DNA from: a virus
Lineage: Duplodnaviria; Heunggongvirae; Uroviricota; Caudoviricetes
Virus record (IMG/VR): IMGVR_UViG_3300027721_000010
Coordinates: 1 to 31,002 of that record
Direction: 5' to 3' (one strand)
DNA length: 31,002 nt
The notes beneath the pieces are model-generated. The model had not been told where the DNA came from. It did no database searches and saw only the letters and a program-made list of their open reading frames with translations. Of this stretch, positions 17,995-23,892 are shown piece by piece (positions within the stretch are counted from its first letter, which is position 1; the number at the start of each line of letters is the position of its first letter). Position numbers and translations under genes: made by a program.

Positions 17995-18225
17995 TTAAAG
18001 GATTATGCGACTTCCGTCTTCTTGAAGAATGTATTGATTGTCTTCTGGTGTAGAACTTTCCAGGAGAAGGAAATCTCCTATAACAGGACCACAACATTCA
18101 TACGTCTGGATTTCTTTCCAGTTGCCCACCTTGGGCTTTGTTCTAGCTAGAATTACACTGCTAGACACAACTCTGCCTGTACCATCATAACGAACGTATG
18201 CCTTAAGTTTATTATTAGTTGCCAT
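17995..18225 (-). CDS. LKAYVRxDG-module protein 1
   Basis: LKAYVRYDGTGRVV...KPKVGNWKEI..YECC then LLLE...YILQEDG. Confidence 0.75.
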   Translation of the reverse strand: MATNNKLKAYVRYDGTGRVVSSSVILARTKPKVGNWKEIQTYECCGPVIGDFLLLESSTPEDNQYILQEDGSRIIL

Positions 18226-18248
18226 TTTATTAAATATATATATAAGAA

Positions 18249-18890
18249 TTAAAAGCTTCTTATTGGTCTTACAACAGCCGAAGTATCCTTATTACTGGCA
18301 CCCTGTTGACCAGTTGAAAAATCTAAACGCCAAGCATTAAGTGCATCAAATTGTGAGGAAGACCAATATCGAAGATTTAGGAATCCACCGATTGCAACCC
18401 TGTTTTCATATAATTTCAAGAGTTCAAGTCTACTTGCTAAATACCAATCAGTATATCCTCCTTCGTTTAAATCCAAACAAAGTTTTGCTGCACTGAAAGG
18501 ATCAGCACACTCAGCAGCTATATCAAGACTGTTTTGTAATCCAGTCCCGATAGCTTGTCCATTAGCCCCTGTTAAAAGAGTTCCAAAACAACCCCAACCA
18601 GCCTGGAAAGGATTGGTTGTGGTGGTTACTAAACCATGTTGAACTAATGGATCATAACCTTCATCACCTGGTTGTAAAATGTATGCAATAATACCACCCA
18701 ATGCAGCGTCACCAACTTCATATTGAAATGCTGTAGTGGTTGTTGTTGTAGTATTACAACACTCATTTGCGTCTATCTCTACCCAGTTGCCCACCTTGGG
18801 TTTAAAGCGCTGAAGGATAAGACTTCCAGCGATTACACGTCCTGTTCCGTCAAAACGAACATAAGCTTTCAGTTTATTGTCAGTTGCCAT
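18249..18890 (-). CDS. LKAYVRxDG-module protein 2 with poly-Thr linker and DUF1566/Lcl-like C-terminal domain
   Basis: Shared N-module, T7 linker, GGYTDWYLAS..EL..LY...YWSSSQ...AW.LDF..G. Confidence 0.75.
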   Translation of the reverse strand: MATDNKLKAYVRFDGTGRVIAGSLILQRFKPKVGNWVEIDANECCNTTTTTTTAFQYEVGDAALGGIIAYILQPGDEGYDPLVQHGLVTTTTNPFQAGWGCFGTLLTGANGQAIGTGLQNSLDIAAECADPFSAAKLCLDLNEGGYTDWYLASRLELLKLYENRVAIGGFLNLRYWSSSQFDALNAWRLDFSTGQQGASNKDTSAVVRPIRSF

Positions 18891-18901
18891 AGGTTAAGAT
18901 T

Positions 18902-19144
18902 TTACCCACCTGTAGTAGTAGTGGTTGTGGTGGTAGGTTCTACTGTAGTAGTGGTTGTCGTAGTGACAGGTACACCAGTGGTAGTTGTGGTAGTAGTAGG
19001 ATTGCAGCACTCATACGCTGGAATTTCCACCCACTTACCAACTTTGGGCTTCTTTCTTCTCAGAATAAGACTACCTGCAACTATTCTTCCGCTTCCATCG
19101 AAACGGACAAATGCCTTTAAAGGACGAGGATCAATTGTTCCCAT
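18902..19144 (-). CDS. LKAFVRxDG-module protein 3 with mucin-like poly-Thr tail
   Basis: Shared N-module followed by three Thr runs (T7, T7, T8) separated by GVPV and VEP. Confidence 0.8.
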   Translation of the reverse strand: MGTIDPRPLKAFVRFDGSGRIVAGSLILRRKKPKVGKWVEIPAYECCNPTTTTTTTGVPVTTTTTTTVEPTTTTTTTTGG

Positions 19145-19155
19145 AATAATTAGGG

Positions 19156-20172
19156 TTAATAGTTAAGGTTATATTTATTAGATAATTTCTTCAATTCGTT
19201 TGCGTAATACCATGTACAACGCGGTTTGCTATTTTCATCATTCAACACCACATCCAGATGCTCATCTTTTGTAGGATCACCACCAGCGTGGTACTTACCC
19301 TTGTAAAAACAGCTGTAGTCACCCATTCTAGTGCCTACAACACCTGCATTATGAAGGATGGGGTGGGTTTCTAGTTTGGTGATGGGGTCAGGAGCCCAAG
19401 AGAATCCCATTTCATCAATCACCTTCACCTCTTTTTCTTTCACCCACAGGTTCCACAGAACAGCCCACATATCAGCGCACCAGCTCTGGAATCCTCTATC
19501 CTCGCTTTCAAAGAATTCTTTGTTGATTCTCTGGAGGTAGCTTCTAATCAGGATGCAATCATTCATCACTTTGTTCCAGAAAGCTGCATCTATGTTCTTC
19601 AGGAGGTATTGTGCACCACCTGAATCTTTATCTTTTTCCATAGCTTCCTCACGACTAATCCCAATCACACTGCCTATCTCTGCAAGGATGTCGCGTGTCT
19701 TATATTCTTCCAGCTTTTCAGGAAGTACATCCTTTATTTTGCTGTCAAAATAAGAAGCGCTTATGTAGCTGTGTGTATCAGACAGATAGCACACATCATC
19801 ATCTATATACTTATCAACGTTGAAATGCTGTGTGAACAGCACATCAGAATCGCAGTAGAAGATAGCCTTATCACTGAGCTCTGGGTGTTCTTTCCAATGT
19901 CTCCAGAGGGTGTAAGGTCTAAGCACTGGAATGTATATCCCTAGTAGCGAACTTACGTCGTGTTCATCTTTGTAGAAGTGGAACTCAGTTTCTGGGTAGA
20001 GGTCAATTACCTGCTTCCAGTTCTTATTCACTTCTCTGTAGTTGGGAGTAAAGATTAAGACAATTGCCTTATCGCTATCTCCTCTGTTCTTTAAACTCTC
20101 TAACCACAGGTGTACTTGCCATGTGTAATACGTATCATCTGGCTGAACACAGACGTACTTAAGATCCTTCAT
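19156..20172 (-). CDS. GT-A glycosyltransferase resembling HPAT/SGT1 (GT95/GT96) protein O-glycosyltransferases
   Basis: YYTWQVHLWLESL, PVLRPYTLWRHW, FYCDSDVLF (DxD), GGAQYL, WCADMWAVLWN occur in the order of the HPAT/SGT1 motifs Y..WQ, N[KR]P...WL, DxD, W..EMY. Confidence 0.6.
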   Translation of the reverse strand: MKDLKYVCVQPDDTYYTWQVHLWLESLKNRGDSDKAIVLIFTPNYREVNKNWKQVIDLYPETEFHFYKDEHDVSSLLGIYIPVLRPYTLWRHWKEHPELSDKAIFYCDSDVLFTQHFNVDKYIDDDVCYLSDTHSYISASYFDSKIKDVLPEKLEEYKTRDILAEIGSVIGISREEAMEKDKDSGGAQYLLKNIDAAFWNKVMNDCILIRSYLQRINKEFFESEDRGFQSWCADMWAVLWNLWVKEKEVKVIDEMGFSWAPDPITKLETHPILHNAGVVGTRMGDYSCFYKGKYHAGGDPTKDEHLDVVLNDENSKPRCTWYYANELKKLSNKYNLNY

Positions 20173-20200: not shown

Positions 20201-20347
20201 CTACGGGGTGGTAGTAGTTGTGGTGGTAGTGGTGAAGTTGTTATTCAAATCACAAAGCTGGCAGGAAATACCCTCCAGCTGCTTAGCAATCTGCCACAAC
20301 AGGTTCTCTGTTGTACCCCATCCTATTTGTCTACTAGGTATTGCCAT
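20201..20347 (-). CDS. 48-aa IPSRQIGW-module protein with poly-Thr tail (absent from ORF track)
   Basis: Manual translation [48 protein letters not shown]; paralog of N-terminus of 20790-21488. Confidence 0.85.
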   Translation of the reverse strand: MAIPSRQIGWGTTENLLWQIAKQLEGISCQLCDLNNNFTTTTTTTTTP

Positions 20348-20349
20348 TA

Positions 20350-20793
20350 TTAATAAGTTTTATTCAATATGAAAATATCACTGTATATACTGTTCCCTGT
20401 GCTAGCTGCACCCCATTGAACAGTGACATCTAATGTGTTACTGATTGTTGTATCAAAGGTTGTACTATTCACTGTATTAAATGCAAAACCTTCAACAACA
20501 CCATTTACTGTTTTTGTATAATGAAATCCACCTAAAGTGACAATTGATGCTACACCAGCAGCTCCTAGTTGTCTAATGGTGAAATCTATATTCAAATTAA
20601 ACACATTGTTTGTAATGTTTGTAATGGGCTGCGCTCCACTGTCAAGTAGGATAACAGAACCCGCCTTCACTCTAATTCTTATTGTTTGGTTATTTGTAGC
20701 AGTTACAAGTCCACCAAATACAGCTCTAAAGCTATCTCCTACACTAAATCCATTAGCTGGTACAGTTAGTGTCCCCACGCCACCATTAATCAA
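20350..20793 (-). CDS. Beta-rich fibre C-terminal domain; probably the frameshifted second half of 20790-21488
   Basis: Only a TTG start overlapping the upstream TGA; [21 protein letters not shown]... Confidence 0.65.
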   Translation of the reverse strand: MINGGVGTLTVPANGFSVGDSFRAVFGGLVTATNNQTIRIRVKAGSVILLDSGAQPITNITNNVFNLNIDFTIRQLGAAGVASIVTLGGFHYTKTVNGVVEGFAFNTVNSTTFDTTISNTLDVTVQWGAASTGNSIYSDIFILNKTY

Positions 20794-21488
20794 GTGCTTT
20801 CTACAGTGGTGTTAGTGATTATGGTGCTGTTTGCTGTTTGAGCAAAAAGTCCATAATTCACTGATGTTGGGAGTGTTGCAGAAGTTCCACTGGTACCAGA
20901 AGTCCCAGTTGTTCCAGAAGTTCCCGTAGTCCCTGAAGTGCCAGTTGATCCACTTGTACCGCTAGTTGCGCTAGTGCCACTAGTACCAGCAGTACCAGAG
21001 GTACCGTTTGTACCATTACCACCAGCAGCTCCATTAAGGTTAACACCCCAAGAGCTATAAGTGCCTGATCCTGTTACTTCAGAAGGTGCACCAAACACCA
21101 AAACCCCTGTAAGGGGATTATATGAAGTGACCATTGAAACCTGGTGATTATTAATATCGTATGCTATCAGTACGTCCTGAGCTGTGGTATAAGCTAAGCC
21201 AGTTCCTACAGTGATAGTTCCACCAGTGCCTAATGTAAATGTGCTAGAAGATGTGGTTTGATATCTGTCTCCAGGTTGTCCAGCAGTTCCTGAAGTTCCC
21301 GATGTTCCTGAGGTGCCACTAGTTCCACTAGACCCACTGGTTCCTGAGGTACCGCTTGTTCCTGTAATTGTGCCTATGTTATCGTTGAGCGTACAGAGCT
21401 GACAGCCAGCTTGCTCCATTTGTTTAGCAATCTGCCACAACAGGTTGTCCTGCGTGCTCCAGCCTATCTGTCTTGAAGGTATTGGCAT
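20790..21488 (-). CDS. IPSRQIGW-module fibre protein with two (GTS)n collagen-like blocks
   Basis: N-module, GTS block, GDRY...WGVNLNG spacer domain, second GTS block, ends abruptly at TVEST. Confidence 0.8.
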
Positions 21489-21942: not shown

Positions 21943-23055
21943 TTATTTTTTATTTTTTTCCTCTTGGGTTGCGTACTTAATACCCATAATTGTTCCTACT
22001 ATCGAGAATGCGTTGGTAAGCAATACGCTAAACATATTAGACCAAGTTGAACCAATAATCTGCGTATCCTTATTTGACAATATTGCAAATGAGTACATTA
22101 TGGTGGTAATAAATCCAACCGACATAATTACAAACAAAGCTGATTTAACAATCACTTTAATTAACTCGCTTTGACTCTTCTTTATCGTTGCATCCAAATC
22201 ATTCAAGGCTGCATCTTTTTCCATCTCTATTGCCAATCTAAGCTTGTTTGAGTTGTCTAACTCTATTTGCAAGTTCTTAGATAGTTCGTTTATTTTGTTT
22301 TTGCTATTTATAGTTTCAGTAATGTCATTGGCAATTTTCATTACCTTTTTGCAGGTGCCATCGTTGCTAAGTATGGGATTGTAAGTGGCTTTCAAATAAA
22401 TAGGAGTGCCATCTACTTTCCTTCTTTCATACTCGCCTTCAAAGAACTTGCCGCTGCTTAACTTTGCCCAAAACTCCTTGTATTCTTCTGACTTTGAATA
22501 CTCATAGCTAACAAAAATGCTGTGGTGCTTCCCAATAATTTTGCTCTCATCTTTTTCGTCAAAGCCCATTGCTTTCAAAAAAATAGAGTTCGCTCCCAAT
22601 ACATACCCGTCACAATCAAAGTAAATGATGGCGTTGCTTTTACTCACTGCGCCAATCTCATTCTTTGCTATGACCGTTGTGCTTACATCACTAGCAATCT
22701 TCATTATCTTGGTTACCTCGCCATCCTCATTCAGTATTGGATTGTAGGTTGCCTGTAGATAAATAAGATTGCCATCTACTTTTACCCTCTCAAACTCCCC
22801 CTCAAAGAACTTTCCTGCTCTTAGCGTTTCCCAAAACTTAATATAGTCATCTGACTTTACATATTCAGGAGAAACAAAAATGCTATGGTGTTTACCAATA
22901 ACCTTTTCGTGTTCTCCATCCTTATACCCCATCGTTTCTAAAAAGATAGAATTAACCCCAAGAATAAACCCATTGAGGTCAAAGTATATGATGGCATTAC
23001 TACGATTAATAGCCTCCATCCTACTCAGTAGCTCTTCTTTACTGAGGTTCTTCAT
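21943..23055 (-). CDS. Tandem PAS/PAC sensor protein with coiled coil and two C-terminal TM helices
   Basis: Two repeats of SNAIIYFD..G..LG.NSIFL..MG...IGKHHSIFV...FW..L..GKFFEGE.ER...DG..IYL.ATYNPIL (chemoreceptor-type PAS); no kinase, GGDEF or MCP output domain. Confidence 0.85.
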   Translation of the reverse strand: MKNLSKEELLSRMEAINRSNAIIYFDLNGFILGVNSIFLETMGYKDGEHEKVIGKHHSIFVSPEYVKSDDYIKFWETLRAGKFFEGEFERVKVDGNLIYLQATYNPILNEDGEVTKIMKIASDVSTTVIAKNEIGAVSKSNAIIYFDCDGYVLGANSIFLKAMGFDEKDESKIIGKHHSIFVSYEYSKSEEYKEFWAKLSSGKFFEGEYERRKVDGTPIYLKATYNPILSNDGTCKKVMKIANDITETINSKNKINELSKNLQIELDNSNKLRLAIEMEKDAALNDLDATIKKSQSELIKVIVKSALFVIMSVGFITTIMYSFAILSNKDTQIIGSTWSNMFSVLLTNAFSIVGTIMGIKYATQEEKNKK

Positions 23056-23296
23056 CGTTATTTCCTTTTGTCTTGTTAATCCATTTATCTACAGAAGCTA
23101 TTCCAAAAGCTCCCAGTACAATTATCATGAATCCATCAAATATGAATTGGTGGATGGGCATTTCTCTACCCAGAATACCAGTGATAAGATCTGTAATCAG
23201 AGCTACCACCATCATGAGGAAGGCAATAAATCCAACCACAGCTTTCTCATTAATAGAGTTGTTGTCGTTAAATAAATCGTGTAAAAACTTTTTCAT
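23039..23296 (-). CDS. 2-TM holin-like protein
   Basis: Two hydrophobic helices, charged C-tail, ATGA-coupled to endolysin. Confidence 0.6.
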   Translation of the reverse strand: MKKFLHDLFNDNNSINEKAVVGFIAFLMMVVALITDLITGILGREMPIHQFIFDGFMIIVLGAFGIASVDKWINKTKGNNDEEPQ

Positions 23297-23892
23297 GCTA
23301 ATAAATTGTAATATTCTTTAAAATGTTTGATACGATCAGCAAGACCAATTGTACCACCGTTTACGCGTTTTGTAACAGAAGTTACCACCGCATCTGTAGC
23401 ACCACCATCCGCTATCTTGTGCAAACCGTTCTTATGGAAGAACCAAGCTGCAGAAAGCAGAGGATATTTGCTAGCCACCAAGTCAGGATTAGCTAGGATG
23501 TCTTCAGGAACTACAGCATCGAAAGAAGTGTAGTTTTGTTTACCTGTAAGTTGGATGTAACCTCTTCCACGAAACTTCCATCCCTCACCAGAAGCCTCAG
23601 GACCATTTCCCATTCTTCCTCCATATACCAGATTAGCTATCTTCTCAGGCTTACGCTCGTATTCCTTAGCTTTAGCTTCTGTGGGGAAATACTTCTTGAA
23701 GATTCCAAGAAGACCCTTGGCACCATAGTTTAGGTTCTCACTTGTAGCCTTGAAACCACCACTCTCGTGACCACATTGAGCCAGGAAGTGAGCTAGTCTT
23801 AAGGGTGTATTGAGTTCAAACTTTTGTACTGTGTCAGGGATCTGAGCCAGTACAGCATCTGGGATGTGTCCTTTTAATTTCTCTATATTCAT
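23293..23892 (-). CDS. Endolysin, glycoside hydrolase family 19
   Basis: RLAHFLAQCGHESGGF..ENLNY, G.GWKFRGRGYIQLTGK.NY, RVNGGTIGL. Confidence 0.92.
   Translation of the reverse strand: MNIEKLKGHIPDAVLAQIPDTVQKFELNTPLRLAHFLAQCGHESGGFKATSENLNYGAKGLLGIFKKYFPTEAKAKEYERKPEKIANLVYGGRMGNGPEASGEGWKFRGRGYIQLTGKQNYTSFDAVVPEDILANPDLVASKYPLLSAAWFFHKNGLHKIADGGATDAVVTSVTKRVNGGTIGLADRIKHFKEYYNLLA

Follow-up and report, generated by a model that had tools for sequence, protein, structure and literature searches.

What would a glycosyltransferase (GT) act upon when a tailed phage encodes it between genes whose products carry runs of threonine? The gene in question lies at 19156..20172, on the minus strand, of a window of 31,002 nt, the whole stretch of DNA analysed here, which belongs to an uncultured tailed-phage record of 95 kb (G000) whose complete relatives are ~115 kb long. 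It starts with ATG and encodes a GT-A fold glycosyltransferase of 338 aa, a member of PHROG 4417, the 'prophage pi2 protein 34' family. From comparative sequence evidence, we put the probability at about 0.7 that the product is a metal-dependent protein O-glycosyltransferase, which would place the first sugar on poly-Thr tails of virion proteins. The joint gain and loss of the gene and such tails suggests that the virus particle is probably sugar-coated, and on genomic grounds this view of the virion appears well supported.

Co-variation of the gene with threonine tails

In 80 related viral loci, runs of at least six threonines were found on the strand of the gene in 77, in 66 of them within 500 bp, and these 80 loci held neither such runs on the other strand nor runs of Ala, Pro or Val. 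Taken alone this count is weak, because the loci are kin. As a control for kinship, relatives were fetched by their tail-tube proteins, in four families and 126 loci. A Thr-tailed tube was present in all 35 gene-positive loci (33 with at least five consecutive threonines, two with shorter runs) and in 0 of the 91 gene-negative loci, which were read to at most 10 kb on each side and one of which breaks off short of the place of the gene and carries no information. When trees were built from the tubes without their tails, 4 (at least 3 of them forced), 2 and 1 changes were required, or at least 6-7 independent gains or losses in all. In one relative (L244), whose tube is 98% identical to that of phage bIL285, the gene has been lost together with the tail of the capsid protein and the greater part of that of the tube. 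The second tail, 2-3 kb off (on capsid and tube), co-varies with the gene as well, and in unrelated phages the gene stands in different positions (after the capsid gene, after the tube gene, or beside an immunoglobulin (Ig)-domain gene), with Thr tails each time; simple linkage is therefore insufficient as an explanation. The initial annotation had suggested a Thr-directed activity, and the co-variation lends this suggestion strong support.

In ten cultured phages the gene is found in or next to structural genes carrying Thr tails or Thr-rich repeats. A Thr-tailed capsid and/or tail tube with the gene nearby is seen in phiFL2A, bIL285, phiCTP1, VPE25, 1706, SA2 and iLp84, and two neighbouring genes are Thr-tailed in the Chryseobacterium phage MA9V-3. 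In the window's own lineage presence and absence are uninformative: gene and Thr runs occur together in all 3 records of at least 90% completeness, and completeness is 54-75% in the records that lack the gene.

In the Staphylococcus phage SA2 (L383:7117-7930) the tube ends in T8-P-stop, with CCC-TAA as the last codons, and the +1 frame continues into a long Thr/Ser tail; this end resembles the +1 frameshift motif of SPP1 gp17.1. In the VPE25-like loci of Enterococcus (L005:5745-5880, L315:7200-7300), a start-less poly-Thr tail is found where the capsid gene stops, in frame -1 (...GCAAAGTAA / ...CCAAAAGCGTAG), possibly reflecting a programmed -1 frameshift that would yield a fraction of tailed capsomers. 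In bIL285 (L003:5940-5990) a TAA stop precedes the capsid Thr tail where the relatives L245 and L246 have TCA, and the tail may be switched off or read through.

Fold and kinship of the enzyme

The motif series first noticed by eye (YYTWQ...LESL, CDSD, GGAQY and WCADMWA) is present, in that order, in the open reading frame (ORF) running 20172->19156, as Y15-Y-T-W18-Q19, LESL at 24-27, R85-P86, D108-S-D110, G185-G-A-Q-Y189 and W231-C-A-D234-M-W-A237. In 97 homologues, Y80, D108, D110, Y136, F257, H274 and K291 are invariant, and G185, G186, Q188, Q229 and D234 are conserved in at least 90%. The predicted structure is a Rossmann-like GT-A fold, and the core motif set of GT-A enzymes, i.e. DxD, G-loop, xED and C-His (PMC7185993), is complete: D108/D110 and H274 occur in 97/97 homologues, G185/G186 in 94/97 and D234 in 90/97, the roles being set by motif order and alignment to the plant/algal HPAT enzymes, not by ligand docking. 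D108-S-D110 (19843..19851, minus strand) is the DxD motif, predicted to bind metal and diphosphate. WCADMWA (231-237; 19462..19482, minus strand), in which D234 takes the xED-like position, aligns with W-x-x-E-M-Y of HPAT/SGT1, and the C-terminal H274 (19351..19353, minus strand) aligns with their invariant His (IHYT / LHYG). The catalytic domain begins at residue 4, and there is no N-terminal hydrophobic anchor.

The initial annotation had assigned the protein, by eye, to GT95/GT96, the families of the hydroxyproline O-arabinosyltransferases HPAT1-3 (GT95, PF23452), which transfer arabinofuranose to hydroxyproline, and of the peptidyl-serine alpha-galactosyltransferase SGT1 (GT96); of this assignment the homology stands and the membership does not. 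HPAT and SGT1 share the GT-A fold with the phage family and are colinear with it in YxxWQ, YxxxxRP, DxD/EPD, the GG/GN loop, WxxD/EM, C-His and FxKxxY. Against Pfam-verified plant/algal HPAT/SGT1, the family profile aligned end to end in hhalign at 89-92% over 242-257 columns, and the controls (native 89%, score 51; reversed 1.2%, score 22; 30 block shuffles at most 5.5%, score 27) place the likeness above chance. A GT8 control, built from a shallow, small set, gave a local 18-column match at the DxD only. When a plant HPAT model was used for a fold search of BFVD, the top viral match was, reciprocally, a member of the phage family; this shared match is the sole basis on which the AlphaFold2 models of the two proteins were compared. 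PDB searches yielded no solved structure of HPAT/SGT1 (GT95/GT96), and the solved structures ranked best for the phage protein are elongating GT8-type enzymes. Best structural matches to GT8 had been foreseen as fatal to the assignment, but they do not refute the link to HPAT, because the plant HPAT model itself best matches GT8/GT6/GT24 in PDB. The plant model scores the structures of the GT8 clan (glycogenin, LgtC, Skp1 Gat1, GlyE, WbbM) and the capsid glycosyltransferase A064R of PBCV-1 equally, and the phage family has no GT8 Pfam match; with no PF01501 match in 97 members and the mere 18-column profile match, GT8 membership was ruled out.

The PF23452 cut-off (23.9 bits) was reached by neither the query nor any of the 97 members, 3 of which gave weak matches (best E 0.012) where true PF23452 members score 140-438 bits, and a PF23452 profile search of the whole genome record gave no match. 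In a quick tree, with a long-branch warning, 42 prokaryotic/phage rows are split by a long branch from 7 eukaryotic rows, with a Shimodaira-Hasegawa-like approximate likelihood ratio test (SH-aLRT) support of 99. Since there is no match at the Pfam cut-off, the identity is ~15% and the clade is separate, the phage family is, on these comparisons, a distant sister of GT95/GT96 and not a member. HPAT and SGT1 put the initial sugar onto the peptide, starting glycans on extensin repeats, and have a Golgi type II membrane anchor (PMC8012813), whereas the phage protein has neither signal anchor nor Golgi stem. They act on extensin Ser-Hyp4 (Hyp, hydroxyproline) and the phage family, encoded by phages and bacteria, probably on poly-Thr, so that the putative acceptor residue is Thr instead of Hyp/Ser, but both substrates are runs of hydroxy amino acids in low-complexity peptides.

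The protein matches PHROG 4417, which includes Orf45 of bIL285 and Orf49 of LP65, at E 1e-54; this family is annotated as of unknown function, to which the present analysis adds fold, kinship and probable substrate. Sequence searches with the 338-aa protein gave no match in Pfam, NCBIfam or PDB. Homologues number at least 2,705 at 90% clustering and 751 at 50%, and 77 records of a phage collection match by tblastn (Lactobacillus, Enterococcus, Staphylococcus, Lactococcus, Clostridium, Chryseobacterium and others), none of them from a mycobacteriophage. Longer members are fused to GT2, GT6, PF04488, PF00534, methyltransferase or radical-SAM domains. Hence what had been taken for a lone phage member is one of a large family that phages of Bacillota and Bacteroidota encode, with an additional bacterial branch. 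Literature searches, whose coverage left out most subscription journals, returned no description of the family, of poly-Thr virion tags or of phage relatives of GT95/GT96.

The bacterial homologues, 415-770 aa long and found in Sphingobacteriaceae (13/301 genomes), form one clade (SH-aLRT 98), which the window's clade joins (SH-aLRT 96), both in the quick tree; 400 evenly sampled Bacteroidota genomes held no copy except in the centre genome. In 14/15 bacterial loci the neighbours are LanB/LanC, LanC-like proteins, C39 exporters, C39-VKOR or GG-leader Ser/Thr/Cys-rich precursors, as expected for peptides synthesised on ribosomes and modified after translation (RiPPs), and RiPP-type neighbours were seen in six further assemblies. 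GG-type leaders are known in Bacteroidetes lanthipeptides (PMC7268733). This context gives independent support for a peptide acceptor. The clusters that hold these homologues (L333, L335, L336, L339-L341, L365-L379) are of the class I lanthipeptide type or combine a GG-leader Cys-rich precursor with C39-VKOR, a LanC-like protein and a C39 ABC exporter, and are candidates for unrecognised glycopeptide natural products.

Threonine-tailed neighbours and other genes of the window

As first described, poly-Thr genes flank the glycosyltransferase gene on both sides. Directly upstream, a 48-aa ORF (20201..20347, minus strand), smaller than the size limit of the ORF list and translated separately, has a short 'PSRQIGW' N-terminal module ending in T10. 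Directly downstream, an 80-aa ORF (18902..19144, minus strand) joins a 'VRFDG' module to runs of T7, T7 and T8, followed by a 213-aa ORF (18249..18890, minus strand) with a 'VRFDG' module, a T7 linker and an Lcl C-terminal domain (PF07603). All three are candidate acceptors, as is a 175-aa protein with a T7 run (28448..28975, minus strand). The Thr codons in the runs are mixed (ACT/ACC/ACA/ACG) and the runs stand on the coding strand only, which rules out a DNA-repeat artefact of the microsatellite kind as their source. The structural region of the same genome holds further PT6-8 repeats, every protein-coding run lies on one strand, and large proteins annotated as virion structural bear Thr runs as well (e.g. 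G000 60910-66264).

A 76-aa paralogue of the 'VRFDG' module (17995..18225, minus strand) has no Thr run, and a 'PSRQIGW' module with collagen-like GTS repeats (20350..21488, minus strand) is split by a one-base frameshift near 20793 into ORFs of 232 and 147 aa, which are a single protein in all matching relatives, so that this is an assembly error or a broken allele. The VRFDG...ECC and PSRQIGW... N-terminal modules (17995-19144, 20201-21488) recur with poly-Thr, GTS collagen-like or Lcl C-termini in the manner of a decoration kit, and a Dps/ferritin-like protein (phrog_858; 16390-16803, minus strand) is encoded amid decoration-like genes. An ORF at 28979-31002 (minus strand) runs on to G000 34036 and encodes a 1685-aa protein with 43% Ser/Thr and long GTS repeats, and more than 12 PT7 repeats are found at G000 69885-70985. 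On the strand opposite the late genes, a 1138-aa fusion of methyltransferase, PF00534 (GT-B) and GT9 (25027..28443, plus strand) is a candidate glycan extender; this protein and the products of two GT2 genes and a Methyltransf_24 gene (10208..12084, plus strand) could extend or cap the glycan. The remaining genes include one for a sensor-like protein in which two PAS domains are combined with two hydrophobic helices at the C-terminus (21943-23055, minus strand) in the lysis region, adjoining a GH19 endolysin gene (23293-23892), and a cluster encoding very Lys/Arg-rich proteins with a common KKAQ(T/F)G-like N-terminal motif (12909-15818, minus strand), possibly internal or DNA-condensing virion proteins. 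The sole cultured capsid relative of the window phage is Leptolyngbya phage Lbo-JY46 (26%).

Proposed function, alternatives and meaning

The protein would be a cytoplasmic, divalent-metal-dependent GT-A enzyme, produced late in infection. Its DxD and C-His would hold Mn2+ or Mg2+ together with a nucleotide sugar drawn from the host's pool, and the sugar would pass to one Thr hydroxyl of the tails after another, ahead of or in the course of assembly. A retaining mechanism may be expected by analogy with GT8, GT6, GT95 and GT96. The acceptors would be poly-Thr or Thr/Ser/Pro-rich tails, on capsid and tail tube in the Bacillota phages and, in the window's lineage, on larger virion proteins as well as small decoration-like modules. 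The particle would thereby bear brushes of mucin- or extensin-like glycopeptides, possibly lengthened by other phage GTs where these exist. Catalytic activity, the Thr acceptor, the initiating role and the virion place of the window's small Thr-tailed proteins are what we infer from these patterns. With some reserve, we also favour the notion of a portable 'tag plus enzyme' module, in which poly-Thr tags can be set on any virion protein and O-glycosylated by one small soluble enzyme, a prokaryotic sister of GT95/GT96 whose family also came into use for glycosylating peptides in lanthipeptide-/glycocin-like clusters of Bacteroidota.

Several observations weigh against initiation on virion poly-Thr by an HPAT/SGT1 relative. 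The gene often stands directly behind one tail, and such physical linkage inflates the co-variation; the gene-negative loci were read to a limited reach, not as whole genomes; and LP65 (in a structural protein detected by mass spectrometry) and 521B (in an Ig-domain protein) have Thr-rich repeats in place of pure runs. The small Thr-tailed proteins of the window carry no structural annotation, and the substrates of the RiPP branch lack poly-Thr, so the acceptor range of the family is wider than poly-Thr. As for kinship, the low identity and the missed Pfam cut-off count here too, and hhalign values dropped with sub-profiles, to 20% for SGT1 alone and 2% for one algal subgroup.

It can be envisioned that a host enzyme, e.g. 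an O-GlcNAc transferase of the GtfA/GtfB type in Bacillota, primes the Thr tails and that the phage enzyme adds the second sugar, like GT8 GlyE or Skp1 Gat1. The ranking of elongating GT8-type enzymes as top solved-structure matches agrees with this, and the co-variation is compatible with either step; however, the nearest named relatives, HPAT and SGT1, add the first sugar to a peptide (PMC8012813), and the hosts span Lactococcus, Enterococcus, Staphylococcus, Clostridium and Chryseobacterium, a breadth that would make a shared priming enzyme unlikely. We consider elongation unlikely on balance, and it is quite improbable that the tails receive a sugar-phosphate or another phosphodiester group, as by the GT-A-like Stealth/GNPT phosphotransferases.

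Many phage GTs modify DNA or the host surface, and the gene adjoins one tail in most loci, as it would if enzyme and Thr-tailed proteins were passengers of one cassette and the target were the host envelope, DNA or a small molecule. Such an arrangement would leave unexplained the co-variation of the more distant second tail, the recurrence of Thr tails wherever the gene sits in unrelated phages and the peptide precursors adjoining the bacterial homologues, and we hold it to be very improbable. The least probable of the alternatives is that the small Thr-tailed proteins of the window's lineage are non-virion, RiPP-like glycopeptides acting in or on the infected cell. The affinity of the window's clade to the RiPP branch (SH-aLRT 96) and the small modules' want of structural annotation would fit, but Thr runs also occur on the large annotated structural proteins (e.g. 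G000 60910-66264), every protein-coding run is on the structural-gene strand, and the small modules have no GG leaders.

Glycosylation of tailed-phage virions has, in the papers found, been shown solely for some mycobacteriophages, where it alters antibody recognition. Phage-encoded GTs of Che8, Corndog and Myrna are reported to decorate capsid and tail-tube proteins (Freeman et al. 2023, as cited in PMC12363180 and PMC11256854), and a shielding role is plausible. In contrast, the acceptor here is apparently a genetically appended poly-Thr tag, the hosts belong to other phyla, and often there is a single enzyme. As no mycobacteriophage is among the 77 tblastn matches, the GTs of Che8, Corndog and Myrna have no detectable homology at that sensitivity, no direct comparison being involved.

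Initiation on poly-Thr tails by this family predicts virion glycosylation, at acceptor sites that can be named, in cultured phages whose hosts are Lactococcus, Enterococcus, Staphylococcus, Lactobacillus, Clostridium and Chryseobacterium, which has a bearing on phage therapy, the binding of host receptors and the stability of the particle. The family offers soluble, anchor-free relatives of GT95/GT96, possibly a one-enzyme/one-tag tool for O-glycosylation, and points to uncharacterised glycosylated RiPPs in Sphingobacteriaceae. If the reading is true, virion glycosylation would be widespread among phages of dairy, gut and environmental origin, and extensin-type glycosylation would gain a prokaryotic relative.
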